Positions 2,020-21,411 of a stretch of 21,411 nt of DNA are shown here, one piece after another. Where the stretch lies: positions 124,001 through 145,411 of the forward strand of contig QPGO01000160.1 in assembly GCA_008632985.1 (NCBI GenBank), given 5' to 3'. The number at the start of each line of letters is the position of its first letter. The first letter of the stretch is position 1. A program made the translations under genes and the position numbers. The DNA comes from Psammoneis japonica. Lineage: Eukaryota. The notes under the pieces were generated by a model, which was given only the letters and a program-made list of their open reading frames with translations, had not been told where the DNA came from and made no database searches.

Positions 2020-2749
2020 ACTGTATGTGCCGTTTTGGAAGTAACAGACGTTTACTGCTTGATGCTGAATTTGTGTGTATTTTTCACTTTCAAGCGTTCC
2101 ATGTCGCGTCACCATGGAACCAGCAGATCCCGAAAATGTCGAAATCAGTGCGTTGAGCTGGCGTTGAGTCGAAAGCAAGAACACATGTTTCAAAAATTAG
2201 GGTGTTGTATGTCCATTAAAAGCATAAGGTGCTGAAAGCGCAATGTTCTATCAGATGCGACATTTATCACTACGGCACTGTAGATGCGTGCTTGCTTTCA
2301 ACGGTTTGAGACGTCCGGTGTGCGGCCATTGCCGCTTCCTCGAACAGTGCAGCTGACTCCAGTTCTAACGTCTAAAAGTGGTGGTGGAGGTCCATTTGCG
2401 GAGCTCGAGCTCCAGACCCAATCACCAGGAGCCTGGCAAGCTTGGCTCCCAGGGTGGGCGGGAGGGTCCTTTTGCCATCCAGCCATTGTTGTTGCAACAA
2501 CAGCAACAGAGTGAGGCACTCTCTGCTGTGCGAGATTGGACCGGGACACCGCTGGGTGCAACAGTGCCTCATCAGCAGTGCCAAGCAAAGACTTGGGAGA
2601 TGGAACAGGATCTTGGAGCTCTTTTGTGGTGCAGGATCCAGCCCATTGTCTTGGCAAAAGACAGCCCCCAGGCAGGTGCACGCCACAGAGCCAGCACCTT
2701 TTAGCGGCGCTGGCGCGAAAAGGCGCGACTCCTCCTTTGACATCTTGTT

Positions 2750-4756
2750 GTGCAATGTGGAGGTCACAGCTGAAAGCATTGGCCATGTCAGGGTCTCACA
2801 AGTTCTTGATGGAGCCCGGCAGACAGTCCTTGAGGGCAAGACAGTGGCACTGGTTGTCATTGGTGTGGGGCACTCATGTGCAGGATGGCTGTCGTGGGCT
2901 TGGGTGTGGTGGCAGAACCTTCGCAATGCCAGTGCATGGTGTTGAGATTCTTGTCCGTGTTGTCTTTGGCAAGGGGGTGTTCACAGACATCAAAACAGTG
3001 GGCGCTGGCATCTTGGTGCTGCGCGAGCCCACCAACGAGCTCAAGGTCAGAGTTTGTGACAGCGCCATGGGGGCTGGACCTTGCAGTGAGCATGCAGTGG
3101 ACAGATGTTGGAAGTGTGCATTGCCATGCAATGGGGGGCTGGCACAGTGGGCACTGCTGCAGTGATGTTGCCATTGTGCAGTTTCTGCAAAGTGACATCG
3201 TGGGGTGCAACAGATGCACTGGGGAGCCACACCCCTCTCCGGCTCCTGAGCTGGAGGCATTGTGCAATCCAACAAGCACCAGCTGGAGTGCCGCAAGCTT
3301 GCACAGGTGTGTGGAGCACAAGGGAAGGTCACAGTGCATGTTGGACAGTGCTTGGGTGGAACCCGTCGTGGAGGCAGAGCTGGTTGTGCTCTTGTTGGCA
3401 CATCGGGCTTGCAGGTGGCTGAATGGACCTCCTGCTCCCAGGATGGCCCGTGACATGGAGCAAAGTTCTCCCAAAAGGCTGTGCCATTTGCATGGGGACA
3501 GTCTTTTTTGTGTGGGAGGTGTGGAGGCCAAGAGGTTGGCACCAAGGTGGCAAAGGCAATGTGGTGGCAGCATGATCATTGCAGCAATGGCGTCAATGAG
3601 CCACCCAAGAACAGCTTTGCAGGTTTCCCAGGAGGTGCCCCCCTTGAGGAGTTTCTTGATGACCAAGACAGGGTCAAGCCTGTTTGGGGAGTCATGGGAA
3701 TCAAGTGGCTGGAGCACATTGTGGATGGCATGCGTGAGGATGCAGCACACTTTGTTTGGTTGGCATGAACTGCCTTGCACTGTGACAATTGAGTCATCTG
3801 CAAATGTGTGGATGAGGTGGCCAACTGGCAGGCTTGCCATGATTGCAATGCAGGGTCTCATTGGGACACATGTGTGCATTGGTTGGCATTGCTGACAGCA
3901 GCAGGGTTGATGGTGTTGGAATGGGCCAGAGACTGCAGGTCAGCAGCTGCTTCAGCATGAGCTTGTTGATCAAGTAGATGGCAAGGTGTGTGGCACCACT
4001 TGAGGATGCGGCGGTGGTTGGCTGCATTGGTGATTGTCTCTGTGACTGTGCAGAATCAGGGTGGTGATTCTGTCCAGCCCACACTGTCATGGACTGCTCC
4101 TGCCATGGTCTCAACCAAGCAACCATCTGGTGGCTCTCCTCCCCGTGGGAGAGGCAATGCAGTTCGGCCAAGCCCTGGAGCATCTCATCACCCAAGTTGT
4201 GCATGCTGACCCACCATGGTCTGACATGTGGCTGAAGCTCGGAGTTGCATTCCCAGCACTTGATGGTGAAGAGCCTCTTGTTGCAGCATTCCCCTGTGGT
4301 CGTGCTTGGGCACCACACCAGTGGGGTGGACACAAAGGTTTGGCAGGTGTCAGACCTTGCTGTGAGGCAGGACCATCCACGCTGCCTTTTCAACTGTGTC
4401 CGCCATTTTGCTGTGAAGGCAGTCTCAGAACTTGCAAGCCAACTTGTTGCAACGGCAGCATCCTTGCACACTTGGCTCCACTGAGCAGTCTGCATCAGTG
4501 CGGGCACACCACAATTGCCCAACTGACATGCCAACTGTCAGGCCAGGTGTTGTCCCAGATGGTGGCAGTTGGCAAAGCCACTGTGGCCCTGATGATGGCA
4601 GAAAAGTGTGGTTGAGTCAGAATTCTTGAGCAGGTCAACATCTCTTCTGACAATCTTGCCCAGTTTGTCTGCAGTGGACCAGGCCACCTCAAGCACTGGT
4701 GGGTCTAATTTGCAGCACTTGGGGGTGGCGCCTGGCCCAGAGTGTTGCTGTGTCAC
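2750..4756 (-). pseudogene. Reverse transcriptase-RNase H (pol) remnant of the DIRS-like element, with an internal inversion at ~4078-4294
   Basis: Motifs are spread across ORFs 4538..4756(-), 3794..4534(-), 4061..4615(+, inverted piece) and 2857..3879(-), with many frameshifts. Confidence 0.75.
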
Positions 4757-5978
4757 TTGCAGCTGAGAGAAGCAACCAACTGCACATTGGCAATGCTGGG
4801 CACTGCCAAATTTTGCATGATCATGTCCAACTGTGCATTGAGAGCTTGCTGGAATGTGGTGACCTCTTCAGTGATGCATCCAACTGTGTGCAGGTTGACA
4901 CCTTCCGACAGGTCATCAGGCAGCAATGAGCTGTGAAGTGCACTTTGGTGATTTTCTTGGACAGGGCCTGCAACACCTCAATGGCAAAGAGCCCACAGCC
5001 AAGCTGCTCACTTGCATCTTGCACATGGGCCTGGATGGTGGTGCATGTGTTGCCTTTCTTTGCCTGAGCAGTGGCAGTGCAGACCACTGCAAGTCTTGTT
5101 CTCATTCAACCTGGCAGCACTGCATGCTTTTTAGTGACTTGTGCAAAAACAGTTGCCAGCGGTGCAGAGCTCTTCTCCAGGTTTTGGCATTGCTGGTCCT
5201 CCAGGCACACCATGTGCACATTTTTGGTCACGAGTGTGTCAAGTCCTGCTGCAATTTGTTGTGCCCCAGCAGCCAGGGGTGTCACAACAGTGAGATCTGG
5301 AAAATCCCCAAAGACCAAGGCGCGCTGATGTGCATTGAACAGCTGTGTGTCTTGAGGGGTGACTGTGGGGTGGCAAGTTGGGTGCCTGCACCACACTGGA
5401 CAAAATGGCTGGTTTGCTGCCTGGTGAGTCAAGGCACAATGCAGCCAATCAACAAAGGGTTGGCAGTCAGCCACTTCAACACAGTTCTCCATGGCACCCC
5501 AAATGCTCTCCCAAGCTTGCCAGGGCATGAGTCCATCACCAAAGATGGCAAGGTGGCACTTCTTGTTGGGCAAGAACATGGCTCTGCAGACTCAAATGAC
5601 ATTGGTGTCTTGGTTGTTGGGGTCGAAGGGCCCTGCCATGTCCAAGCCAGGATCAGCAGCCAACAGTTGATCCATCAGTTGAGGGGACAGAACCCTCATG
5701 GCATTTGCAATGTGACAGGTGTTGTTTGGCCACAAGACTGATTGGGGTGCTTGGTTGTTGCACACATTGCCCACAAAGGTGCAGGCATTCCCATTGAAAG
5801 GCAAGGCTGCCATGCCCAAACACATGGGGTGTGGTGTGTGACATGGTGATGGCCTTGTGTGATGTTAGGATGAATCCTCTGCTGCAGTGTTGGGCTCTTC
5901 AATTGGCAGCATCTGTGGCATGGCAGTGGTGTCAGCATTGCTGGCATTGCAGACCACAGCAGTTGACTCTTGTGGAGT

Positions 5979-6002
5979 GGGGGGGGGGGGGGGGGGGGGG
6001 GG
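5979..6002 (+). repeat. Poly-G homopolymer (24 nt)
   Basis: Seen directly. It reads as poly-Pro on the minus strand. Confidence 0.95.
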
Positions 6003-6180
6003 TGCAATTCCTTGCAAGGGGACATCACAGGCAGCACAGGCTGTGGCACATTGATTCTGAAAGGGGTCCTTGGCAGCATCAGGAAGCAGCGGTGGCAGGG
6101 CACCACTGGTGCTCCCAATGCTGCACATTGCACTGGTTGAGGCTGTGGCTGCATGGCAAGTGGCACCCCTTGTTGCACAG

Positions 6181-6207
6181 GTTGCTGCTGCTGCTGCTGT
6201 TGTTGTT
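6181..6207 (+). repeat. (GCT)5(GTT)3 trinucleotide tract
   Basis: Seen directly. It reads as poly-Gln or poly-Ala/Thr on the minus strand. Confidence 0.85.
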
Positions 6208-7049
6208 GAAGTTGAGCTGCAGGTTGAGCACCCACTGCTCCTGCAGCAGCAGGTGAGCCATGGCAATTGAGGATGAGCAAAGGGGAAGGTCATGTCTGGG
6301 CAGGTTCTGTTGTGATCCTTTGACTGTCCAATCCGCAGTTGGCAAGTGGTGAGCAAGAGGAGGTTCACTCTGCAATGGACAGACTCAAGCAGATCAACAG
6401 CCCTTTCTTGATCTTTCCTGTTCTGCAGTGTTCAAATGATGTTGAACTTCAGTTGTGTCATCAGACAACCACGAAGGCATGAATTTGATCTCATGCACAT
6501 GTGGCAGTGTGCTGCCTGGAAAAGTGCCGTGACTGCATGCATGATGTTCACCCACACATTTTCAATGTGTTTGCTGTGACTCCCAGATTTTGAAGAGTTG
6601 CACACAAATGGCACTTTTCATGTGTGCTTGACAACAGACTGAGAGTGATCCACTGTCTGCACAGGAATGGCCTGCTCACTGAGACCCCACCCCACACACA
6701 CACTGGGAGAATTGCAATCCTGGTGAGAGGAGGAGCGCTGTTTGGCTGGGGTGAAGAACAGTGCAGTGCAGTGGTGAGTCACTTCCACCACCTGAAACAT
6801 GTGTTGAGCAGTGGCAGCCAGTGAGCATGTCCAAATGACTGAATGATGGAACCTGGGCAACATTTTTTGTCAGAACATTGCCGCAGTTTGCTGCAGTGTC
6901 AATGCAGTCCTCCAATCACACAAGATCTTGCTCTGTCCATTCCCAAAGAGCAAAGTGATGAATGTCAACAATGTGTCAAGAGTGTGGCATGGTGCACAGG
7001 CTGACTGGTGTTGGCCATCACAAGGGATGACAGAAAATGAAGATGTCCA

Positions 7050-10000
7050 GTGGAAGAAAGGCAACGCTCCTTGCTGCTGTCCAAACAGCAGACAAGTTTT
7101 TGTGCAGAGACCATTGTGCAAGAGCCAACAGACATGCATTGTGAAATCAGCTCCACCATCATCATTTTTCAGAGCTCAAGAATGTCAGAGGCAATCACCT
7201 CACAAACACAATGGAGTGACAGGGTGGGGGGGTGTGACTTGTGTGACTTGGTGTGTTGGATGGCGGCACTGTCAACAACCAACCAGTTGTCACCAAACAT
7301 GTGGCTCATGTCGTAGATTGGGGCACAACAAATTTCGACATGTGGGTTGGCTGTGGCCTCAATGGCAGCTTGTTGCTTCTTGGGGAGCCAATCCACAGGG
7401 AACTTGTTGACGAAATGGATGATGCCCATGATGGGGCACCCCACAAGCATGAAATGGAAGAGGCTTGCATCATTGACACAATGAGTCATGGTGACAAACT
7501 TGCCAAGGGGCTCATGGGCATCTTTGGGAAGCAGTTCCTCCACATTTCCATGTGTGGTGTGCACCCACCAGCACACTGGCTTCAAGCTTGCATTCATCAG
7601 GTTGGGTCCTCTCAAGATGATCCATGGAGTCTTGCCATTTGTGTTTGTCATTGCACGCATCATCAAGTGCCATGATGGCATGCTTGCAGCTCCATGGAAC
7701 TTTGCAACCACACTTGCAACAAGGTGCAGTGCAGAAAGAACACAACTTGGCTTGATTGGCTGCATGCAGAACAGGACCTTCTTCTGGTGCCTGGCTGTGG
7801 CATGGAAATGCATCCAACCTTCAGCACCCAGGAGGCCATTCTCATGAGCACCACTGCCTTCATGACTCTCAAGTCTGACAAGCAATGGCACATGTGGCAC
7901 ACTTCTCTCATTGAACAAGTTTGAGCCCAGGATGTGGAGCACAATTTGGGCTCCACATGTCAACCTGTGGCTCCCAAAAACAAGCAGCTGTTTGCTGAAC
8001 AACAGAAGCACAAGTCATTTGTTTTTGAATGCATCTTGCAAACTGACAAGGGAAGGGTGTCTGATGCCCAAGCCATGCATTGCAAGCTTTCTGTGTGTGC
8101 AACCTTGACTCCACTCATGCATTGCTTGAGTCATTGATGACCCTGCTCACCCACCTCACCACTGCTTGTCTTGGTGGTGACCTCATCACTGCTTGTCTTG
8201 GTGGTGATGGCACATCATGGAAGGGACCCATTTGTGGCTTCATCCTTCACTGGCAGGACAGCTGCACAAGTTCAAGGCTCTGACCCCATCTTCTGATCAC
8301 TTCTCTCCTGGACAGAAGTTTGTCATGCAGGAGAATGTGGCTCACCCCATTGCAGAGCTTCGCTCTGTCAAGAGTCAAGCCAATCAGCATCACAGACAGA
8401 GTGGGAACAGCCTTGCACTTGTGATCATCATTGTGAGCATCTGCTCCTTTCCAGGGTCCTGCAACTCCCAACAATGTGCCCAAGCATCATGCAGCCAGTG
8501 GCCATTTCTTTGAATGGTGCAAGAATGGTGACTGATGCTCCACAGGGTCCTGTGGATGCAAGAATGTCAAGCATTTCTACTCTGTTGGCTCAGTGGTTGC
8601 AGCCAACAAGGGTTCTCAAGCCACCCCACCCCCCATTGGATGTGGCTTGAGCAGACTGGACTCAATGGCATGACAGTGCAGAGTGAACTGATGGCATGCA
8701 TCAGAACACCAGAAATGGAAGCTGCCATGCCCAAGAATCCTTCATTCCTGGAGCATGGAGCATTGACAAGAAAGGTGCAGCAGCATTGTCTGGCAGTCAT
8801 TGAGCAGCAATGGATGGCGTGCCAAAACACAGCACAGATGCAAGCCAGTGATGTGATCCTTCATTGCCATTTTGTCTTTGGGCTGACAGGGGTCTCATCC
8901 TGCCTTCTCCTCAATGACAGGAGTGCAGCTTAAATGGAAGAACCTTCATTGCCAACAATGGCATCAGAATCATGCTGATGCATGGATTTCTTCACCTCTG
9001 GATTGTGACAAACCAATCCCAGCACATCCAACTCACTTCGCCACTTGACTCAAACACACTTGTGAGCACTTCTGTCATCACATGTGGCATGTCTTCTAAA
9101 AGTCATGCTTCAGAGAAGTCTCCCAAAGAATGGCAGTTTTCTGAGCATTGCAGGGTCCCACTGCAGTCATCACAGGGATCCAAGCATGCTCATGAACAAA
9201 AATGCCTCTGGCTTCTGAAAAGAAACCCATTTTGGCCCCACCTTTCTGACACAGGGATCTTCTCAAACCAAGCAGACAACATGCACCACACCAGCCCTGA
9301 ATGCTGCACCTTGTGCTGCAGTCAGTTTCAGACCACCACAGATGGCATTTTCCCCACTTTTGATGCTCATTGCAAAAGTTGACACATGTGTGGAAATGGG
9401 TGCTGCTTTTGGTGCCCATGGAGACAGGTGCCCAACAGTTTGCCACAGCAGCAAAATCTCCCCTCCATCAACTGTGTGGGCACAAAGAAGCTTGTTTGGC
9501 CTGTCAACACTGAACCAAACGGCCTCCATCCATGACGCATGTTCAACAGAAGCTTGCATCTTTGGCCTGGACAAGGAAGAATTGGTGAGCGCCAGCCATG
9601 ACTCTGTGCTTTTGCTTGTTGCACCACAATTTGATGACAGCAATGTGCAGAGGCTTTTGCCCACTGCCAACTGAGCTGGGTTGCAAGTCACCACATCCTG
9701 GTGCAGATTTGACCCTCACTCTCAATTTGCAGTGAACCTGCATCAAGGGCCTCCAATGCATTGATCCTGTCTTCTGGCAATTCCATGGTTGCTGCGCAGC
9801 ACTGTTTGGAATTTCTCCACACCTTGACAGGACGAGGAATTGAATCTTGACATCTGCTTCATTGTTGTTGATTCATCCCAACATGTCATGCTGCAGGTCC
9901 TGTGCCAACCAACTGATGCGGGAAGGCCACCGGCCTGACAACACGGCAGACAGCAAAGGCTCAAGGCTGGATGTCAAGCATTGCTTCTTGAATCAGCAGG

Positions 10001-11150
10001 GTCAACTTTGTTTCAAGCAGCCAGAGATTCGCCATTGGGTTCTGTGATCAGCAAGCAAATGGCACGCACAAGAGCAGAAACAGCACTCACAAGAAGCTCA
10101 CCTGACACATTGGAGACAAAAAGCCCTTGGTGTGCTGGCATGGTCCCCAGCATTCTTTCACTTGCAGGCCAACCTCTGCAGGATGATGAGAGATCTGCCA
10201 CCTCCATCAGTTGGGGTGGGTTGTGCATCACCTCTTTGACAATTTCTCCCAACACAGGAACCTCAGGAATTGCTTTGATGTCGCTTCTCATGATTTGGAG
10301 AAGTGCGTTGCACACCCCCTGCTGTGTCCCCCAAACATTGGCTGCACCACCCAGCACACCAACATGAGGAGGTGCGCCACATTTGTTGGCAGATTGAGGG
10401 AGCGAGCAACCCAGACTGGCCATTGGCAGTGCGGCGCTGTTCCACAGGCAGCCTGTTTCACATCATGGAGCTGGCATTTGGCAAGTCTGTCCAACCAAAC
10501 CCATGACCCAGCTCTGCTCAGCAATCCCAGGGTTTGTTCCAAATTTTCAAAAGACTCCAAAGCCCCTTGCTGACAACATTGTGCTTGTGACAATCCATGC
10601 GCACATGAGCGGGTCTTTTGTGTCCCAGAAATTTCCCAAACTCAGAGGGTCCCACACTGGCTCCAATCACAAGCACTTGTGGTGGGGTGAGACTGGTGGT
10701 TTTCTCTGCACTTTGCCTGGCCACCTTGATGGTTTGTTTTCCATGTCGACCGACTCCAACTCATTGGTTGTCATGGCCAAAGAGAGCTGTGGGCCTTCTT
10801 GAGACTTGGCAGATGGCAGATGGAAGCAGCTCAACTGAGATGAATGAATTCTTCCCTTTTTCATGCTTGTGACTGATGCCTGTCTTCCTTCCACCATGAT
10901 CCATGTCCATCAAAAGAGTTGCTTGGCATCATTTTGCCACGGTGCACTTGGCATCTCCAAAATCGACAAGACCACTCAAGGTGGGGTTGTCGCCAATGCC
11001 AGGATGGCATTTTCTGCTGCAAGCAAGTTTGGCTTCCATTGACAAGTGCTGTTTCATTTTTTCCAAGTTTTTCCACATGGATCAGTTCTTCCTCTCCTGG
11101 TGGTTTGGCATGACCAAGAGATTCTTCCAAGCTGATGATGTGGCATGAGC
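7050..11150 (-). mobile_element. Degenerate Ty1/copia (CoDi-like) LTR retrotransposon pol remnant: PR-IN-RT-RNase H
   Basis: Seen: a clear CoDi-type RNase H region at 7169-7560 (ELLPKDAHEPLGKFVTMTHCV.DA...GIIHFVNKFPVDWLPKKQ...HMFGDN.LVV...LSLHCVCEVIA). Weaker remnants of RT (DSSNA, AMHGL ~8060-8135), integrase (~9800-10400, LITEP, EKFQTVLR) and protease (TALVNGS ~11040) lie in copia order. LTRs were not identified. Confidence 0.8.
8154..8207 (+). repeat. 27-bp tandem duplication (1 mismatch), each unit with a 7-bp internal inverted repeat
   Basis: Seen: cctcaccactgcttgtcttggtggtga / cctcatcactgcttgtcttggtggtga. The arms tcaccac...gtggtga are perfect in unit 1. Confidence 0.9.
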
Positions 11151-11830
11151 GCCTTGTTCATTGCCTTGCTGCTCCATTGTCTCCTGCCATGCTGTCTCAC
11201 AGTTCCATCCTGCTGAGAGGAGAAGCGTTGATGACCTGCACCATGTGTTTGGAAGAAGAGCATCCCGTTGCAGTCAATTGCTGCTTTTGGAACAAGGTGC
11301 CTCCCACCTGGCTTCAAAGGACACATGAAACATGTGCAGCCAAGAGCGCGAGCGCCAAGCATCAGCGTTGTCATCATCATTTGTTTCTGTCTGTCAGTGC
11401 TGCTCAATGAGAGGCTCCAGTTGTTGCTTTGTTGTTCACTGCTCACCCACCATCATTGCAACTCTGGCTGCTTTTTTCAGCGGGAGGTGTCGGCGCGTTT
11501 GCGCAACTCTGTGCCCGATCCATGAGAAACAGAGTGGTCAAAGTCGGCACTGAAGGGCATCTCATTCATGTCCAACCTCGAGAAATGGCGGTCGTCCCCG
11601 GGAATTGGAAAGGGTTTCTTACGGCAGTCTGAATAAGACAGTCTCAAATCAGGTGTTGTGTTTCTAACTGCTGTGTGTGTGAGATCGATTTTTGAAATTT
11701 TGATTTCTACGCCGATCGCGTAGCGCTTCGTCCTGTCTGGCCGTCGCAAATCTCCCTCCAAGACGCGTTCTGCATGATCGCGCTGGCGCGACACGACCAC
11801 TTCCAACTTGCATGCGGGAAGAAGACTCAT
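11150..11830 (-). pseudogene. Unknown gene starting at ATG 11830, disrupted by two in-frame TGA codons and running into the mutated TE block
   Basis: Seen: a CAA-rich leader (caacaacaaaaaacgcgaacaacgATG) and a 117-aa ORF. ORF 11054..11446 is in the same frame, separated by TGA at 11479-77 and 11455-53 in the context CGC TGA and TGA TGG TGG. Inference: these were CGA/CGG Arg codons. No family was recognised and the 3' end is uncertain. Confidence 0.45.
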
Positions 11831-11980
11831 CGTTGTTCGCGTTTTTTGTTGTTGAACTTGCAGGGAAACAAACGCAAAAACAATATATACCCCTCAAACC
11901 TTTGTATTGCGTTTATAATAGTCGTTAAGGTGTTTCAAAGTAAAAGGGAGTGAGAGAGATTTTCAGAGAAGGAGACGAAC

Positions 11981-12023
11981 GAGAGAGAGAGAGAGAGGAG
12001 GAGGAGAAGAAGAAGAAGAAGAA
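11981..12023 (+). repeat. Purine microsatellite (GA)n(GAG)n(GAA)n upstream of the LRR gene
   Basis: Seen directly, ~60 nt upstream of ATG 12083. Confidence 0.85.
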
Positions 12024-12082
12024 CTTCTGTAATTGAAATTGCTTGAAGAGTAAGAACAACAAAGAAAAAGAGGCGAAACATC

Positions 12083-14719
12083 ATGGCGGAAGAAAACGGC
12101 GATACCAGTGGCCGAAACAATTCAAGTAAGTCTTTGTAAACTCTTGACAATTGAATCGCAAGTGTAGTCGCCTAACGCCTCTCCCGCATAACTACCACCT
12201 TTTCTTCCCTTCTCTTCATAGCATCTCGCCGTACCAAAAACAAGAAGCATCATTCCTCACGTCAAGCTGACAATGGCGTAGGAGAGCAATCAGAATCTTC
12301 GAAAAAAAGAACTACTCCTTCTAGTCGCCGCCACACAAATGGCAACAGCAGCCACCGCCGCCGGAGCTCTTCCCCCGGTATTTTGCCAGTTAGTTCGTCT
12401 CGCAAGGTAATTGCGGTGGAAGATAAGCAGTCCAGCACATCACTGGATCAAGAGTTTTTGGCACAAGAATCCTTTACAGCAACGAGACAACGACAAGCAC
12501 GTACCAACGAGGACGCCAAGCTTCAATCCGTAATGGAGGACGATGTGGCGGCGAAAAAACGAGTCTCCAAAAGGAAAGCTCCGGCTGCAACAACACCGGG
12601 TGCAGTGGCTATGCACGCCGACTCATCGGACAATGCCGTGTTGCTTCAAAACATAATGGACGATGATGCCAAGAAACGAGCTGCAGGATCGCTTGGTCCG
12701 GCAACGACTGTCGTTTCTGAAAAGCAACGACGCAGTACTGGACCGGCGCTTGCTCCCGCAGTTGATTATGAAGAAGAACCTCAAGACGATGGTATGGAGG
12801 ACGAATATTACAGCAAGACCTTTGATTCGGATGATGACGATAAGATTGACCAAGACAAGGCTCCTGAAGAAGAACAATTGCAGCCCGAGCAACAGGTGGC
12901 ACACGGACGCGGGGTGGCGCCCGACTATCGGCACGTGGCGGAGGATGATGGACGCTTGGCGGTAGCCGTTGCCGTGGAAGACGACGAGGACAATGTTGAT
13001 TATATTCCTTCCGCTATTGAATACGACCCAGACGCCAAACCACCCCTCTACAAGAATCGACGATTCCAATTGTACGGAGCACTGGCTGCTTTGCTTCTCT
13101 TGGGCATTGTCGTGGGAGTCGTTGTAGGCGTACTGGTCGGCAGCGACACGTCACCCCGAACCCTGGCGCCCACGGCGACTCCCACCCTGATGCCAACGTC
13201 ACAAGAACGCGGTGAAATTGTGGAACGATTCGTGGCACTCGTGGGCAATGCTGTCCAACAGCCCGGCACACCGGAATTCATGGCGACGGATTGGATTTTA
13301 AATCAAGATCCCATGGGACTCAATGAAGACTCGGAGAATTTGACACAACGATTCTTGTTGGCACTCTTTTATTTCTTCACTACACAAACTTCTGATTGGC
13401 GTACCTGTGGGGCTCCTTCTTTAGATGAAGATGAGAATTGTATCTTTGATGTCTTGGGATTTGGCTTTGATTCAGACAGTCAATTCTATACCGGGATTCC
13501 CGCGATTCGATGGCTATCTGGCAAATCCGAATGTGAATGGATTGGAAGCATTTGTGACGATGTGGGCACAATTCGAGCCATTGACATGTGTGAGTCAATA
13601 ATCAAGAGTGCGAATGAATTGTGTTTTGTCTGTCTACTCATACGCTCACTGAATTCTGTCATTCAACTACACTTTGCGCAGGGGGCAATAACATTACCGG
13701 ACCACTCCCGCCGACGCTAGCCAAATTTCCATTCTTGCAAAGCATCTCCATGGCACATAATCAATTCACGGGAAGCATTCCAGAAGAGTACGCCAGTATG
13801 CGCCACCTTGCAAACTTTGAATTGCATTATAATGCCTTGACGGGAACGATATCTCCTTCCTTTTACGACGCCAATGCGCTACAGAATTTCAATGTCGCTA
13901 GCAATGATTTGGACGGACCGATTGAGGGTGCGCCAGGATTGACTATTGATATGTTGGAAGAGCTAAAAGGATTACATCTCTTTGACAATGACATTACGGG
14001 GAGCTTTCCAACCGGTATCGGCAATTTGAAGTTCCTATCATTTATGCGCATTTCGGATAATCAGTTTGACGAGCAGCCCATTCCAACGGAAATGGGACTG
14101 CTCACGTCTCTCCAGGAAATGTGGCTTGATGGCAACAAATTCAACAGCACAATTCCAATTGAATTGAGTACCATGGAGAAATTGAGTGAGTAACATTGTG
14201 CTGCGTGGTGTGTATTGGAGTGATTATGGTTGTAGTCGGAGGATACGCATCTAACTCAAAATCGGTTCACTCTATTTCATGTTTACAGCCGATTTGCGTG
14301 TCAACAACAATCGCCTCACGGGTCAAATTCCAGAGTCGCTCTATGAATTGACGGATTTGGTCTTGTTGTTTTTGGAAAAGAACCAACTCACGGGACCTCT
14401 CAGTCCTTCTGTAGGACGCTTGATTGACTTGGAACAACTCCGTTTACGAGAAAACTTGTTGTCAGGCGCCATACCGTCCGAGCTTGCACTTCTGTCCAAA
14501 ATGCTGCTAGTCTTTTTGCACCGCAACAAATTTGAGGGTGCCGTCCCGCAAGAGGTGTGTGCTAACGTTGGGTGTGGAAGGCTTCAGTTTGTAAATGCCG
14601 ATTGTGGAGGACCGACACCGCCCAATCCATGCGAGTGTTGCACCTCGTGCTGTGATCCCTTTGGAATCCCGCCAGGGGTTTGTCTTTCGACGAACTATTT
14701 GGATTGTCGGCGTGGCTAA
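12083..14719 (+). CDS. Single-pass membrane leucine-rich repeat (receptor-like, kinase-less) protein, 4 exons, ~781 aa
   Basis: Seen: exons 12083-12125, 12222-13589, 13682-14185 and 14289-14719. The introns are GTAAGT..TAG, GTGAGT..CAG and GTGAGT..CAG, and all splice in frame. The protein has a disordered N-terminus, a TM helix (LYGALAALLLLGIVVGVVVGVLV), a PT linker, an LRR N-cap (WLSGKSECEWIGSIC), plant-type LRRs (LxxNxLTGxIPxxL) and a Cys-rich C-cap (ADC..CECCTSCC). Confidence 0.92.
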
Positions 14720-15154
14720 GATTGACAACGTCAAGATTGTCGTGTGGCGGTTTTCATGTCGCAGCTGAGGCAAAAGTTGCTGCACTTGTGATTTATCGAA
14801 AATTAGCTGTTTTTTTTTCCCAGGATATCATTGTTGTGAAGAGTGGCCATGTTCCACCTGCTTTTCTCTTGGTCGTTGATTTCGTGGGTATGGTACTGGA
14901 GATGGTGGTGGCATACTCAGGAGGAAACAACGCTGCAACGCTTTACAAGCGACAAGCTCCTCCCCAACACGAATCCTCATAAATACATGGGCGTTGCTCT
15001 TTTGCAAATGTTAATAGGTACACATAGTGTTAATGAGACCGTGTGTTCATTCGAGACAGTAGTTAGCAACACTATTGCATAGATAGTTTTTGCATTCCGT
15101 TGGCGCATCTCCAGCGAGTTCAAAACAATCCGGAGTTACCGTCACAACATATAA

Positions 15155-16373
15155 CTATATTGAATCTTGTACAATCACAAATTCTTCTTCTGAATCACTG
15201 CAGCTACAAGAATACACGGCAATGGTACCCCAATCCATTCCGCCACCCGAATCGTGCAATTGTTTCACATCATCATTCAAAGTAGCAGTATCGGTTGGTG
15301 CATGCTTGTCGACGTGTAGCAAATGCAAGAGGGACGGCATGATTTGAAAATTAAAGTTGCGCTTCTTGTGACATTTGGGACACGATGGAATGACAAGGTT
15401 CTTGCTCTTTGGGATGGAACTAACATGCCATAGTACAACAAATAATGGTGAGAGTGTGATTAAATTAGTCCACACCAACGACAACAAATAACACAATAAC
15501 GTACATGGACCAAATGGGATTGCCCGAGCCCTGTCGAATCACATGATTGGGATAGAGCTTGACGTTTTTCATAAATCGATTCAAGGCTTGTTCATCACGA
15601 CCCACGGATTCATCCTTTTCTCGACAAGTAGTGGTCGCTCGTTGCTGTTGTTGCTTTCCATGCCCCAGTGCCGTCAATATTTCTTCATCGTCCTCTTGCT
15701 CCATGTACCGTGCCAGCATTTGTTGAATCTTGTCGTCATTTGTATTGGTAGTACTGTTATAGTCTTCGTCAAAGTCATAGGCTTGAATCGTCCAACAATC
15801 AAAGGAGTTTTTCGTGTCGGTTTTGTTGGCATTGTTTCTGTTTGACTCTGTCTGACTCTCGATGGGAACTTGCTTGTTGTTGTTATCCATTATTTGCTCC
15901 ATGGCCTTGACCATGGCTTCTAAATCCTTCTCCGTAGTATCATCGTTTTCATCATCACTCATGTCCCAATCATTATCATCCAATAAATCGTGTTGTTCTT
16001 GTCGTTGCGCAGTAGCTGGTTCCGCGTCATCGTTTGTTTCGTTCTTCTTTTTGTAGCCTTGTTTACAACGCAACGCACAATACACTCCACCACCACCCAA
16101 ACTAAACTTTGACTTGTCAAACAACGTCCGTGTACAAGAGGCCCGGTTGCATCCATAAACACTTGTCGTTGTTGTAACGTCGTCATCATTTACCAAAATG
16201 GAAACTATGTGGTGCATGCGTGCTTGACACACGGCGCAACTCGGTTGTCGTTGCAACGAAATACCACCAATAAAGGACCATGAACCTTCGACGATTTCAT
16301 CCATGTCACGGCATTTTGATAATGGTTCATAAAGGTAGACTTGTTGCTGTGGGTGATTGGTCGACGACGCCAT
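15155..16373 (-). CDS. PDCD2L: PDCD2-like / TSR4-like protein (PDCD2_C domain), 2 exons, ~377 aa
   Basis: Seen: exons 16373-15505 and 15419-15155, with an 85-nt intron GTACGT..TTAG that splices in frame. N-terminal motifs are FIGG..P.CAVC..M and VYGCNRASC. C-terminal motifs are P.HVIR..GNPIW, IPSCPKC..R.F.FQIMPSLL and MDWGTIAVYSC...EEFVIVQ, typical of PDCD2_C (knowledge). No MYND finger is present, hence PDCD2L rather than PDCD2. Confidence 0.88.
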
Positions 16374-16840
16374 GGCCACTCGTTTTTGTTCTTCTAGCTA
16401 TGGCGATATTTTTGGAAATTCAATGATATCATCGTTCTTGAAAGTACTATAATATCAAATTGAAGTACAACGGAAAAGAGGCCACAGTATTATTGAGATC
16501 AAGATAAATTTCGGAAACCCCTCGCATGCGAGACCATGACGTTCACATCACCGCGAGCGCTTTAGAAGTACTTTCGACTTTCATTATGCCGCCTACTAAA
16601 CACCAAAGCGCCGTACTTCTCCCGATCTACCCTGCTGCTATGAGGCAAATCCTTTAGCATGTCATCTGTCAATGGGAAGATCAATCGCATCCTTGTATCC
16701 TTGTACATGTCGTATACTTTGTCTCAGTTACAAATGGAAAGTGTGGTGCATAATGCATAAAGTGACAATCCCAGAAACGGTTTCCTTCCCTTTCTATACT
16801 CATCAAGCAGGCTAATGGCGTGATCCATCATGATGTCATA

Positions 16841-17150
16841 TTATTTATGCTTTTGGGGATTTCTCTAGAGTAATCTTGCGGTTTCGGGCAGTCTTCCAAC
16901 CTATCGTCTTTGAAAGATTCAAGGTCACTCGCATTTTCGTCCATCAAATCATAGAGGCATCATTGCCTTCCTTCCCACACCCAAGTCCCATGTTGAACGT
17001 TCCCAATTTCGGTTTTGCCAATCCACTCGGCAGCATAATCCGTGCAATCGAGTTTCGCAACACGACATGCCCCTTGTTTGCCGCATTGTCAAAGACACCA
17101 AGGGTCATTTTGAGCACTTTGTGAAGTAACGGTTCTGTTCCCTTTCTCTA
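16841..17150 (-). pseudogene. Possible decayed coding fragment
   Basis: Seen: one minus frame reads LLEKGNRTVTSQSAQNDPWCL*QCGKQGACRVAKLDCTDYAAEWIGKTEIGNVQHGTWVWEGRQ*CLYDLMDENASDLESFKDDRLEDCPKPQDYSREIPKKHK*. It is protein-like with two internal TGA. No family was recognised. Confidence 0.3.
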
Positions 17151-17802
17151 GTAGATATCAGTATGTCACATGCTTTCTACACTTTCAAAGGCTTTTGCTT
17201 CATCTACTAAAATGCATGCCCGGCATGTTTGTAATTGGCACATTTTCAAGATGCACAAAAAACAGTCGTGTTTAGAACAAGTCGACTGCCATGTGTGCCG
17301 AATGACGCTTTTCCATTTTGCAAGACCTGTGTTGTTTCTTTGAGTGCGTTCTGTAAGTGTAATAATATTTGCCCATGATTCGTCGTAGATCGCAATCAGC
17401 CGTTTGAGAGATTTTGTTTCGAATGAGGAACAATAATGACTCTCGGCGGTCATCGATTCTTGTTTTTTTGTGTTATTAATTCTGGGTTGTTTCAAACAGT
17501 TTAACGATGCTTGAAGTACTGTACTGATACTTGCGCTAAGGAATAACATTTTCACAAGGAAGTCTTCTAGAACAAAGTTCCTGGCATTGGGCTAGTTGTA
17601 TGACTACCGGCACCAAAGTGTTGGCGAAATAGTTCGTTTTCTCCCCAGACACTTTTTAGTAGTAGTGACTCATTTACGTGGGATTCCACAGGATAGGTAC
17701 GCGGGACTGCAGGGGACCAGAAATATCCGAAAACCTTCCATGCCCGGTCCCGCCTTTACATTTTTCACATTTGCTTCTCACAAATTCACATTCTTTGCAA
17801 TC

Positions 17803-18435
17803 ATGAAGCTCTCCGTCGTTGCTCTCTTTGCGCTTTCCCTTGCTTTCTACTCTGCTTCTGCAGAGGCTCTCAAGAGTGAAAGCCCTGGTGCTGTCACCAA
17901 AACGGGCGGGCTTCGAGGCTTATCCGAGCCAGCTGCAGAACCCGCGGAAGTGGTGGTCTACGAAGAAGAAAGCGAGGAAGAAAAGAAGCCCGCCAAGAAG
18001 GCTCATAAGAAGGGCAAGGGCAAGAAGAAAAAGAAGAAGCCCGCCAAGAAGGCCAAGAAGCCCGCCAAGAAGAAGCCTGCCAAGAAGAAGAAGAAGCCCG
18101 CCAAGAAGCCTCTCAAGCCGGCTCTTGCAGACAAGGTTGGCAGCTCCTCTAGCTCTTCCACAGGTACTCCTGGTGACTCTTCATCAGGTAGTACAGGCAA
18201 GCATCGTGTCAAGAAGGCTCACAAGCCGGCCCGATATGCAGGCGGTGACAGTGGCTCGTCTGGAAGCGCATCTAGTTCGTCTTCAGCAAGTGAAGGTGGT
18301 GATCCTGCCAAGCATCCTTACAAACCGGCACATGCAGGTGACGACAGTAGCTCCTCCTCTGGAAGTACCACGTACGGTGTCTCTTCTTCATCCGGTACTG
18401 TCTCGAAAACCCCTGGCGACTCTCACCCCTACTAG
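17803..18435 (+). CDS. Secreted Lys/Ser/Gly-rich low-complexity protein, silaffin-like (candidate biosilica or extracellular protein), 210 aa
   Basis: Seen: a signal peptide (MKLSVVALFALSLAFYSASAEA), GLRGL (an RXL motif), an acidic run, repeated KKPAKK (KxxK) and Ser/Gly blocks. Codon use is strongly AAG/GCC biased. Knowledge: signal peptide + RXL + KxxK + poly-Ser is the silaffin/cingulin pattern. The true start is taken as ATG 17803 rather than TTG 17596. Confidence 0.8.
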   Translation: MKLSVVALFALSLAFYSASAEALKSESPGAVTKTGGLRGLSEPAAEPAEVVVYEEESEEEKKPAKKAHKKGKGKKKKKKPAKKAKKPAKKKPAKKKKKPAKKPLKPALADKVGSSSSSSTGTPGDSSSGSTGKHRVKKAHKPARYAGGDSGSSGSASSSSSASEGGDPAKHPYKPAHAGDDSSSSSGSTTYGVSSSSGTVSKTPGDSHPY

Positions 18436-19329
18436 GCACGTGCTACCGTCGTGAAATTAGAAAATGCCATGTCGCTCGATTGGGTGTCTAGAAAATGATG
18501 CAACGCGACGTTGTTGGCAACATTGCAGAGGATGCGTCCTTATTTGCTTCAGTATGATACTACTAAAGCACGGTATATTATCAATGTCATGACAAGGTGT
18601 AGCGTTTACTTTAGCGTAGTTCTGATTGTTTTGTGTTGCTTTGTTTGAGGACGGTGGAGGACTTGAAGGAATGCTCCTCTGGTGGCAACAACTAGGATTT
18701 GTTGTGGAACTGGCGATCATAATTCCATAATTCGACTCCAAAAGAATGCCCGTAACCTTGCGATTCAATATAGTTGACTCTAAAGGAGTGAAAATTGTGC
18801 TTGCCAATTGGCATGAAATCATGGCCACATCATTTGTGACAGGAAGTAAGTTGCAAATTTTTCGACGGCTCACGATGACCAGAAAGGTGCAGATTAAATC
18901 ATAATTTCTTTTGATATCTCATCGGTACATTTTTGTTGTAAATTTGTTTTTGCTGAGGCAAGAATCTTTGTTTGTAGTGGCGGCGCCATTGTCGATCGTA
19001 GGCCGTACATTAAAATGAATGGAAAGCGTCCTCTCGCCAACTGAATTTGTGACCAACATTTTTCAATACATGAAAGATAATACGTGCCTGTATATATATA
19101 TTATATTCATCCTTGTGTTAGAAAGACATATAACAGTAGTATGACATTTTGGTACCTTCTACTCCGCAGAACTGGTCATGATAGACCACTACACGCTAGA
19201 CCAAATGCAGACCACGAATCTTCTTTAAATAAAATGACGTGGCAGATGAATCTTGCAACAATCTTATTTTGCATTTATGTTCATGAATGCCACAAAATAT
19301 ACTTTAACGCTTACTGTTCGCTCATAACG

Positions 19330-21411
19330 TCTCTGTCGCGCCAGGATTTTTGGTGAGCCAACAACAAACAACACATGCACCGCAGTGCACACAGTTGTGG
19401 CTTGCACTTGTTTGTTGTCAACTTATCGTTTCACACATGATGTCAAACACCAATGAAGGTTCATCTGTCCTTTTGTCCTCAGATCATGAGGCAGATAAAA
19501 GTGATGACAATGATTTGTCAAGCTCCCAGCAAGAGCTGTTGGAAAACAATGACAATGCAATTTCTGATGCACATGGAGATGACAGTGGTGCAACTGACTC
19601 TGCTCAGTTTACCTCCTCTCAACCAGCACTTCCACCCCCTCCCTCTCTTAAAAAGGTCTCAATGCCTTCATTTATGAACAATTGTGGGGAGCATTCTGAA
19701 GCACACCCTCTCAAAGAGCAGAGTGAGGAACTTCTCAAGAAGAGCTGGTCAGCTGAGGATCTTGCACAAGAGATTGTCAAACTTGCTCCCACAGAAGAAG
19801 ATGTCTCCAGTGCCAATGAGAACCAACGATCTCTAGATTCTTTCAAGACAAAGTGCAAGCTTGTGTTTCCTGTTGGTCGTCACTTTGCTGGCTGCAAGCA
19901 GTTGCACCAAGCTGCCACCCAGTTTCTTGACATGTGGGCCATTTCTTGTGTTCATGATGGGAAGCAAATTGTTTGTCACTTCAGTGATGCCAAGTCAGAT
20001 GCATGCAAAGAGAAAAAAAGAAAGCCTTTGGATCAATTGCAAGGCAGTGGCAGCCGCAGGTGCCAGAAGCAGTCCATGAAAGAGCGGTGCAAATGTCCAT
20101 TTGTGACTCGGTGCTCTCTTGTCAACAAGCGTGTTGACCCTCAATTGGGTGCAACAAAACCAGGCATTTTTCACCTTGTGAAGATTACCGCAGCAAACTG
20201 TCACCATTCTCATGACCTCAACACGGTTTTCCACCGCAAGGCAAAAGAGACTGGTGGCAACCTCCAACCAAATCTTGCTTGTCTTGAGTCAGTGATTGAT
20301 CGGATTGAGTCAAATCCATCAGTGGAGCCCAGGGAACTGCGGCCATTGTTGCAGAAGCACATGCCAGTCTATGCCTCAATGGATGCAACCTTCATAAAAA
20401 ATTTCAAGTGTCGTGTCCAAACATGGTTGATCAACACAGACCCCCAGGAGCGTCAGGTTGCAGCTCAGTTTGCAGAAGACCTGGCAAAGAAATGCCGAAA
20501 GAGTGCAGCTGATGAATTCATCATCAGTGACTCAACCATTGCTCGAAAGAATCTACATGCCATGCTTTGACGTGTGATGCAGGAGGACTCATCCACTTGG
20601 AATGCACTTCATTTTCTTGAAGCCATGAAAGAATCAAACCATGGATTTGACTTCCGATTGATGCGTGATGACAATGGCAGACCAGAAGCAGTTTGCTGCA
20701 TGACCCTTGAAATGAAACGTGACCTCAAGAGGTGTGGTGATGTGCTCCACCTAGATGCTCAGAAGCGACAGCACAACAAGGCTGGTTGGCCATGCATTGG
20801 TCCGGCAGTGAAGGACTCTGAGATGAAACCTCGTGCTGTTGCAGAAGGCCTCTGCCTGGAGGAGGATCACAAGCACTGTCATTTTGTTCTTGAGTCTGTG
20901 GAAAGCATCACGGAAAACAAGTGGCAAATCTCAGATGTCAGGATCATCTTTGCTGACCAGCACCTGACCAGTGGCTTTGTTGAAAGCCTGGGCAATGACC
21001 TTGACATTGTGCTGTGGTGTGATTTTCACCATGCTTTCAATGAAGTTTGGCCGAACCCTGACAATTTTGGCATTTTCCATCATGAAAAGACAAAGGACTG
21101 CCTCCGGATAATGCTGCAGTGCAGCACAGAGGAAGAATGGGCCCATGCATTCAATGAGGCCAAAGTGCATGTTGCTGATGATGCTCAGAAAACCTGCATT
21201 CTGCGAGACATTTTCTCTAAGCCAGAGTGCCATGCGGGGCACCATCTGAAGCAGCTGGCCGGCAATCTTGAGCTTGGTGGTTCTGTTCCGGCAGAGCAGA
21301 ATCATGCTGGCATTGTCCCAACATTTGGCAGAGGTGCCACATGGAGCATTGCTGAAAATTTGAAGATGCTCATTGAGCGACAGAGTGCATCAAGCAAGAA
21401 GCGACAGCAGG
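19330..21411. other. TpA-depleted hypermutated domain 2
   Basis: Seen: about a dozen TA and about 30 CG by eye in ~2 kb of the ORF, with an abrupt change from the TA-rich sequence at 19080-19327. Confidence 0.9.
19437..21411 (+). mobile_element. Mutator-like (MULE) DDE transposase, inactivated by one TGA and Tyr-eliminating substitutions; runs off the window
   Basis: Seen: a single frame from ATG 19437 to the window end with one stop (TGA 20568-70, context ML*RVMQ). It contains CKCPF...HSHDL (WRKY/GCM1-like N-terminal domain), GDVLHLDAQKRQHNKAGWPCIGP, RIIFADQ, CDFHH and GSVPAEQNH, i.e. the D, D, CxxH, E signature of MULE transposases (knowledge). Confidence 0.85.

Follow-up and report, generated by a model that had tools for sequence, protein, structure and literature searches.

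The window analysed here, a stretch of 21,411 nucleotides (nt) from Psammoneis japonica (assembly GCA_008632985.1, contig QPGO01000160.1, positions 124,001 to 145,411), carries at its right end part of a Mutator-like (MULE) transposon. Its transposase gene has lost most of its TpA dinucleotides and all but one of its tyrosine codons. The gene is a single open frame of 658 codons on the forward strand (19437-21410), contains one stop and runs off the window end. An earlier note made from the letters alone (hereafter the original prediction) had described it as almost intact, with a single TGA and no frameshift. This was borne out over all 658 codons: the translation aligns collinearly with 11 relatives over residues ~63-657, and no frameshift was found across 19437-21410. 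The gene and its parts are as follows.

19437..21410, + strand: MULE-type transposase, putative pseudogene, codons 1-658 (relatives, collinear alignment, Atlas clusters)
20370..20372, + strand: sole surviving Tyr codon, TAT, codon 312, in the motif PVYAS (majority-Tyr column, kept)
20568..20570, + strand: sole stop, TGA, codon 378 (Arg in relatives; CpG transition CGA>TGA)
20649..20969, + strand: predicted RNase H-like catalytic core, residues 405-511 (sub-threshold Pfam stretch)

The protein search, made with the in-frame stop entered as X, returned 11 relatives with 35-41% identity (E values from 1.4e-127 to 4.2e-62), of which the long ones have ~1100 amino acids (aa). From these relatives, from Pfam family PF21056 in members of the alignment and from PF10551 in the nearest protein Atlas clusters, we identify the frame by similarity as the N-terminal 60% of a MULE transposase. 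PF10551 (MULE) occurs in 97-100% of the members of those nearest clusters (score 0.93-0.95); the Atlas clusters of 4 relatives are annotated as 'hypothetical protein' or unnamed. PF21056 (ZSWIM1-3 RNaseH-like) has matches in 6 of the 12 aligned sequences (the window copy is one of the 12), the best with an E value of 9.9e-07; at residues 405-511 of the window copy it scores 18.1 bits (E 0.0027), under the cut-off of 27.2. The motifs LHLD, FADQ and AEQNH may hold the DDE residues. In the long relatives, a SWIM-like CxC...CxH stretch lies ~130 residues past the point where the window ends (codon 658). The 3' end of the element lies outside the window, within which there are no inverted repeats of at least 40 nt. 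A search for shorter relatives, such as predicted fragments of sister copies, gave only 2 weak matches of 101-132 aa.

Loss of TpA and of tyrosine

Across 19437-21410 we count 12 TA (observed/expected ratio, o/e, 0.09) and 31 CG (o/e 0.28), alongside 208 CA (1.63) and 211 TG (1.79). The original prediction, judging by eye, had put CG at ~30 and TA at ~12. AT, AA and TT are not depleted within the element (o/e 0.95-1.16), and there has therefore been no general drift from AT to GC. Host-gene stretches at 11501-19000 have a TA o/e of 0.45-0.67 and a CG o/e of 0.71-1.10. When the flanks of the 12 surviving TA sites were searched for a preference, no clear rule was found.

We compared the window copy with 48 related MULE reading frames from metagenome contigs. 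Their TA o/e ranges from 0.36 to 0.82 and their CG o/e is mostly 0.55-0.78; 37 of the 48 loci have at most two stops, and in these Tyr makes up 2.6-5.1% of residues. None of the 48 has a TA o/e near 0.09, even with decayed, low-CpG copies with many stops included, the lowest value being 0.36. Four of the decayed loci (L037, L041, L047 and L048) have a CG o/e of 0.11-0.43 and a TA o/e of 0.56-0.82, with 15-46 stops in the naively read frame. These loci lost CpG and kept TA, and loss of TA is therefore an unusual fate for dead copies of this family.

The window copy has one Tyr in 658 residues (0.15%), as had been noted at the outset, against 3.91% in the aligned columns of the relatives (binomial P(<=1) 1.2e-10). 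His stands at 5.0% against 3.1%, and Cys at 3.8% against 2.3%. A tyrosine codon, TAY, can lose its TA by one transition in two ways, to CAY (His) or to TGY (Cys), and TTY (Phe) is not among them. We therefore examined columns in which relatives carry Tyr, using two sets: 15 columns that are at least 60% Tyr in the 11 protein relatives, and 18 majority-Tyr columns in 19 non-redundant translations (<90% identity) of metagenome MULE loci. In the first set the window copy keeps none of the 15 Tyr, having instead 6 His, 4 Cys, 4 Phe and 1 Ser; Phe, by comparison, is retained at 11 of 13 Phe columns and Trp at 6 of 7 Trp columns. In the second set codon 312 is the only one of 18 to keep its Tyr; six of the others are His, five Phe, four Cys, one Ser and one Lys. 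Majority columns for other residues are kept in 207 of 339 cases. Both strands are altered at these columns (6 His, coding-strand T>C; 4 Cys, A>G). To look for strand-coherent patches, we applied a run test by hand to 14 TG/CA outcomes inferred at Tyr sites; it gave 6 runs against 7.9 expected, which is not significant.

At columns 226, 246, 308 and 481 every relative with a residue there has Tyr (17-19 sequences) and none has Cys or His; column 453 is Tyr in 18 of 19. The window codons at columns 226, 246, 308, 481 and 453 are TGC, CAC, CAC, TGT and TGC. Two core motifs are altered, KRQ(Y>H)N at column 446 and WP(Y>C)IGP at column 453. Most of the places at which the original prediction had suspected Cys or His in aromatic positions fit this pattern: RQHNK (Tyr in 10 of 11 relatives), WPCIGP (11 of 11) and PECHAGHHL, which one relative has as PEYYAGYYL. 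The C and H of RCGDVLHLD fall at F/Y and F/C columns. FAGCKQLH fits only in part, with its C at a mixed F/Y/D/E column and its H aligned to a conserved Asp rather than to a former aromatic residue. Likewise, the claim that Tyr went by TA>TG/CA accounts for 10 of the 17 lost Tyr, now His or Cys, and leaves aside five that are Phe. Phe is present among relatives at 4 of these 5 columns, and the five Tyr>Phe changes may be older lineage differences.

TpA loss, CpG decay and sister copies

We next set TA and CG side by side by codon phase (codon positions 1-2, positions 2-3 and the 3|1 boundary between codons), with counts scaled to 658 codons and averaged over 12 intact relatives.

TA by phase: relatives 24/23/32 (sum 78.5); window copy 1/5/6 (sum 12)
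CG by phase: relatives 27/10/27 (sum 65); window copy 23/6/2 (sum 31)

TA has been lost in all three phases, including the one in which loss from a Tyr codon is always non-synonymous. On the same scale TG rose to 211 from a mean of 154 in relatives, and CA to 208 from 152. CpG has been lost almost solely at the NNC|G boundary, where C>T is silent (2 left against ~27 expected), and the Arg CGN phase is largely kept (23 against ~27; kept versus lost, phase 1-2 against phase 3|1, Fisher p 7e-9). The boundary excess of T|G is 124 against 79, and that of C|A is smaller, 79 against 65. Because CpG went at silent boundary sites and stayed in Arg CGN codons, most of its loss was probably filtered by selection and is older than the death of the element; TpA loss, by the same counts, appears to have happened without selection.

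Conserved Arg columns allow a more direct comparison. Of 26 such columns 16 are kept (12 CGN, 4 AGR), 4 are Lys, 2 are Glu and 4 carry a CpG-type change (TGA, CAT, TGG and CAG). Thus 12 of 16 CGN Arg codons remain, but of 11 Tyr codons only one does (the other 10 now read His or Cys), and per-site loss is roughly 8-fold higher for TpA than for CpG (-ln 0.09 against -ln 0.75). The stop belongs to the same class: codon 378 is Arg in 11 of 11 relatives and in 19 of 19 non-redundant ones, so its TGA arose by a CpG transition, CGA>TGA. The original prediction had held that TpA loss ran to near completion before most CpG decay. This is supported in that TpA loss is the faster; CpG is not intact, at an o/e of 0.28 against ~0.65 in relatives. 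With the CpG loss being older and filtered by selection, the claim that TpA loss outruns CpG decay is strengthened, with the Arg and Tyr codons giving it firmer support than the raw 31:12 would.

Other copies of the element were seen through contigs of a public run, X1, which holds 56% of the stretch's sampled words; two further runs of the same sample, X2 and X3, gave nearly no cover. We placed X1 contigs on 18500-21411 at a likeness of at least 80%. There were 82, of which 21 lie at >=99%, 25 at 95-99%, 24 at 90-95% and 12 at <90%. Summed depth is 100-500 within the element and ~90 in the flank, and the element is therefore repeated in the genome.

The contigs differ from the window at 147 places (113 transitions, 34 transversions), and we assigned the best-supported 40 of these to site classes. 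Among these 40, 32 letters fall within the element and make up 22 sites, 15 of which are at former TA. Ten of the 22 are adjacent TG<>CA doublets, seven with TG in the window and CA in the contig and three the reverse. At two sites (19425 and 19496) the window has TA and the contig TG or CA, and at three (19778, 19989 and 20253) the window has TG or CA and the contig TA. Four sites are of the CpG type (20086, 20088, 20409 and 20735) and three are other transitions (19752, 19810 and 19918).

A TG<>CA doublet has two possible ancestors, TA and CG. With TA as ancestor, codons 421, 433, 602 and 603 would encode Tyr, where relatives have Tyr, Phe or Trp and the two copies now have Cys against His; Val436, Leu510 and Ile123 likewise match relatives. 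With CG as ancestor the residue would be Arg, Ala or Pro; these are absent from all relatives at the six clearest doublet sites, and the relatives' common residue is matched at 0 of 10 doublets. Three of the ten carry no information on the ancestor. At 19989 and 20253 the contig's TA reading encodes Thr and Ser, residues that several relatives share, judging the alignment by eye. Because the residues given by an ancestral TA match those of relatives, we conclude from the comparison that a given ancestral TA was changed on one strand in one copy and on the other strand in another, and that the process acted on resident DNA after copies or haplotypes separated, and in both.

Background divergence was measured on three long sister contigs, at 19327-19554 (2 differences), 19611-19861 (11) and 20254-20876 (11), from copies that are ~98% alike. 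Together they span 1102 bp with 24 differing letters, of which 21 listed ones could be placed by their depth values: 14 in 7 doublets, 3 single TA-type, 2 CpG-type and 2 other. Ordinary divergence, at non-TA, non-CG sites, is thus 2-5 letters in 1102 bp, or 0.18-0.45% (2 listed plus at most 3 unlisted). At TA sites 10 differ among ~44 expected ancestral TA (from 78.5 per 1974 bp), or ~23%, an excess of 50- to 125-fold. Low background divergence with heavy change at TA is what the original prediction had expected to see, and its preference for an active process over slow drift is supported.

Edges of the TpA-poor DNA and the rest of the window

The edges of the TpA-poor DNA, and a second domain of the same kind in the window, bear on how the process might be targeted. 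Three further stretches, none with a strand, need to be distinguished.

19326..21411: TA-poor, CG-poor domain, 13 TA in 2086 bp, TG and CA in excess (TA positions, 200-bp table)
19167..19325: possible 5' end of the repeat unit, 12 TA in 159 bp, normal density (contig ends, TA positions)
2374..11619: second, older domain of the same kind, 9 TA in 9.2 kb, CG o/e 0.03-0.3, TG+CA o/e ~2.0 (dinucleotide counts)

A repeat boundary probably lies near 19167, where contigs with differing flanks have loose ends (19166/19167) and depth rises from 89 to 293. The switch to TA-poor sequence is sharp and falls between 19325 and 19424, with an onset ~110 bp before the ATG. The segment between could possibly be a spared terminal repeat, or a different repeat that abuts a truncated MULE. 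Terminal repeats of 123-124 bp and ~200 bp are reported for diatom MULEs in the available parts of two sources (PMC6446971; 10.1101/2023.01.02.522487), and by these lengths the ~160-bp spared segment is of terminal-repeat size. At position 19300, inside this segment, the window has TA and a sister contig CA. Just 5' of the ATG, at 19355-19425, there is an imperfect palindrome, CAACAACAAACAAC...GTTTGTTGTC, around GCAC/GTGC repeats, a candidate promoter or subterminal element of the transposon.

In the older domain TA has fallen to an o/e of 0.02. TAA and TAG are gone from 2374-11619, and each of the six frames there has open reading frames (ORFs) of 150-360 aa that might be taken for genes. Pfam searches of six read-through frames of 2201-11202 and of 7 long ORFs there found no match. 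At the right edge of the domain, 11200-11619, TA is still absent and CpG is recovering (o/e 0.46, then 0.75), so that the erasure of TA extends 200-400 bp past the CpG-poor zone, toward an ORF starting near 12176. TpA loss and CpG-poor DNA coincide, which suggests that both processes are drawn to one chromatin state. To judge from the overshoot (11200-11619) and from where the loss sets in (~19326), targeting would follow chromatin or transcription, and not the exact borders of a repeat.

Between the two domains lies host-gene DNA. An ORF on the reverse strand (15465-16397) has as its nearest Atlas clusters PDCD2_C-like, eukaryotic proteins, mostly from plants; one Bacillariophyta cluster scored only 0.83, so that this ORF shows the host to be a eukaryote without placing it more closely. 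On the forward strand, 17596-18435 is a Lys/Pro/Ala-rich host ORF of low complexity with normal TA and CG, and four overlapping copies of a 51-nt repeat of the AAGAAGCCCGCCAAGAAG type lie at 17975-18133. A short (TA)n run at 19091-19104 and nearby small indels at 18890-18910 show deletions of 1-7 bases between X1 contigs, which resemble haplotype variation of the flanking host DNA. Depths of 42 and 34 in two contigs of the flank suggest a heterozygous diploid.

Explanations and known mutators

We read this as a dead, multi-copy MULE transposase gene that underwent A:T>G:C mutation at TpA only, in each copy separately and once inserted, and put the probability of this reading at about 0.85. The changes lie in TpA context, run toward TpG and CpA, affect both strands and recur independently in sister copies. 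They are in large excess over background divergence and are confined to the element, with neighbouring genes untouched. In the proposed mechanism, A:T would become G:C at TpA alone, giving TpG when one strand is hit and CpA when the other is. Some 85% of TA steps and all Tyr codons but one would have been rewritten, TAY to CAY (His) or to TGY (Cys), and the frame would stay open, as TA>TG/CA makes no stop from a sense codon. The original prediction had reasoned in the same way that such a gene dies by missense changes rather than stops; its logic is right, and the sole stop comes from CpG. Ordinary CpG decay would have run alongside, ~8 times more slowly per site, and produced that stop. The agent would be enzymatic base editing of DNA, in which either adenine is deaminated to hypoxanthine or the thymine paired with it is modified. 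Such editing would defend the genome by targeting silenced mobile DNA, a role already proposed in the alga Bigelowiella natans.

Several points weigh against this reading. The evidence for the process is a historical comparison of copies, and the enzyme and the modified base are hypothetical. The sister-copy site classes are a selected subset of the differing places; 5 of the 34 transversions are among them, all upstream of the element. The sister contigs may be paralogous copies or may come from the other haplotype. Numbers of ancestral TA and CG come from relatives that are 35-41% identical and probably belong to other species, which makes the 85% loss and the rate ratios rough. The five Tyr>Phe changes are transversions outside a TA>TG/CA process and are unexplained by it, as is the normal TA density of 19167-19325 if the whole element was targeted. 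Finally, the 623-bp contig has 4 discordant doublets where independent, symmetric loss would give ~10, and 4 TA that survive in the window also survive in this contig (at most one unlisted difference). Much of the TA loss may thus be shared and older than the split of the copies, or some sites may be refractory.

Among the alternatives, the one that survives best keeps the TpA process at the level of DNA and places the primary lesion on thymine rather than adenine, for example by enzymatic hydroxylation that lets T mispair with G. TpA is self-complementary, so T>C and A>G on the other strand are indistinguishable, and the sequence data agree just as well with such a lesion. Some protists have thymine-modifying enzymes. 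Nothing in the present data favours a thymine lesion, however, and the sole published proposal, seen in the available part of its source, is ADAT2-like adenine deamination, itself untested; we regard the thymine version as unlikely.

Much further behind comes RNA-level A-to-I editing of transcripts by an ADAR-like enzyme, fixed in the genome through an RNA intermediate. The TpA context would suit the 5'-U preference of ADAR (cited in the accessible text of 10.64898/2026.01.13.699255), and hits on both strands are what double-stranded RNA would give. However, MULEs are described as cut-and-paste DNA transposons without a reverse-transcribed stage (PMC6446971, in part), resident copies kept diverging at TA sites after their separation, and the TA-free zone of the older domain runs 200-400 bp past the CpG-poor zone toward a host gene. 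These facts leave editing of RNA very improbable.

Two further explanations are hardly credible. Ordinary neutral decay of an old pseudogene, by slow context-dependent drift plus CpG deamination and no special process, would account for the depleted CpG (o/e 0.28), for a stop that is a CpG transition and for the 132 of 339 non-Tyr majority columns that differ from relatives; it is contradicted by sister copies that differ at 0.18-0.45% of ordinary sites and at about a quarter of expected TA sites, by a frame with one stop and no frameshifts in 658 codons, by AT, AA and TT without depletion and by the four decayed relatives that lost CpG and kept TA. A living transposase lineage that had adapted to avoid TA, under pressure from a TA-directed mutator or nuclease and with a functional Tyr-free protein, would explain the nearly open frame, the apparently selection-filtered CpG loss (NNC|G lost, Arg CGN kept) and the conservative Phe at five Tyr columns, but catalytic-core Tyr that are invariant in 17-19 relatives are now His or Cys, codons 421, 433, 602 and 603 are Cys in one sister copy and His in another, which means no constraint there, TGA stands at an invariant Arg, and codon positions 1-2, with 1 of ~24 TA kept, have lost TA no less completely than the other two phases.

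Beyond the TpA-specific mutation of a dead MULE, our findings open the possibility of a wider system. A TpA-specific, base-editing DNA defence, by an adenine deaminase or a thymine modifier, might be common to distant algal lineages (the one studied here and the rhizarian B. natans). It would be steered by chromatin or transcription and not by repeats, start near the transposase promoter and not at the physical end of the element (TA is normal in 19167-19325 and lost from 19326), overshoot the CpG-methylated zone by a few hundred bases, inactivate by missense changes only and act ~8 times faster per site than deamination of 5-methylcytosine. We offer this only as a tentative proposal, one we would sooner doubt than adopt.

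Targeted mutators that disarm mobile DNA are familiar from fungi, in repeat-induced point mutation (RIP), and from the APOBEC and ADAR systems of animals. RIP changes C:G to T:A, mostly at CpA, and enriches TpA. Here the direction is opposite: TpA is destroyed, CpA and TpG are made and stops cannot arise. Rather than C>T changes at CpA, enrichment of TpA and stops, the element has o/e values of 0.09 for TpA, 1.63 for CpA and 1.79 for TpG. The likeness to RIP, as known from Neurospora (PMC7296669, in part), lies in a dinucleotide-specific transition mutator that destroys repeated or mobile DNA through numerous point changes and spares neighbouring genes. Methylation-driven CpG decay is also recognizable in the element, as CG>TG/CA (o/e 0.28, the CGA>TGA stop and 4 of the 22 listed sister differences). 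Unlike TpA loss, it is ~8-fold slower and concentrated at silent boundary sites, and it cannot remove TA. As to the transposon itself, published diatom MULEs, as far as the available parts of the sources describe them, measure 3.7 kb with 9-bp target duplications (Phaeodactylum MULE, 10.1101/2023.01.02.522487; the 'MULE-Diatoms' group 37, PMC6446971). Compared by description, ours resembles them in its multi-copy state and its MULE / SWIM zinc-finger type of transposase; unlike the published 3.7-kb elements, it has relatives of ~1100 aa, and its 3' half lies beyond the window.

If the process is general, then TA-poor, TG- and CA-rich, stop-poor open DNA would be a cheap marker of silenced mobile DNA in algae. 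Because all six frames stay open, such DNA would also give rise to false gene predictions. In the literature searched, and the B. natans preprint apart, no TpA erasure is described in diatoms or in transposons. The only report of a TpA-specific A:T>G:C mutator dates from 2026 and concerns viral inserts of a single alga (10.64898/2026.01.13.699255, available in part).

The closest known system is thus that of B. natans (Mettrop et al., 10.64898/2026.01.13.699255). There, according to the accessible text, A>G and T>C changes, without exception at TpA, made up 230 of the 231 mutations that mutation-accumulation lines gained in two integrated viral regions, at ~1000 times the background rate. The targets are integrated giant-virus and virophage DNA, a viral insert has a Rho(TpA) of 0.45 and the enzyme proposed is an ADAT2-like adenine deaminase (10.64898/2026.01.13.699255). 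DDE endonuclease and reverse transcriptase domains are over-represented in coding sequences of that genome that are poor in TpA and rich in CpA and TpG, and the same text makes no mention of diatoms or CpG (10.64898/2026.01.13.699255). Like the process in B. natans, as far as that text describes it, the one seen here is A>G and T>C at TpA only, affects both strands, strikes foreign DNA and lies far above background. Unlike it, the target here is a DNA transposon, the loss is nearly saturated (TA o/e 0.09 in the element and 0.02 in the second domain), CpG depletion coincides with it and the evidence is historical, from a comparison of copies, rather than de novo. To that system the window copy adds another genome, a DNA transposon as target and a clean read-out in coding sequence, and its TG<>CA doublets at shared Tyr sites show the process to be recurrent. 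It also provides a first internal comparison of TpA and CpG rates and an argument for dating the two, with CpG loss under selection and TpA loss without.

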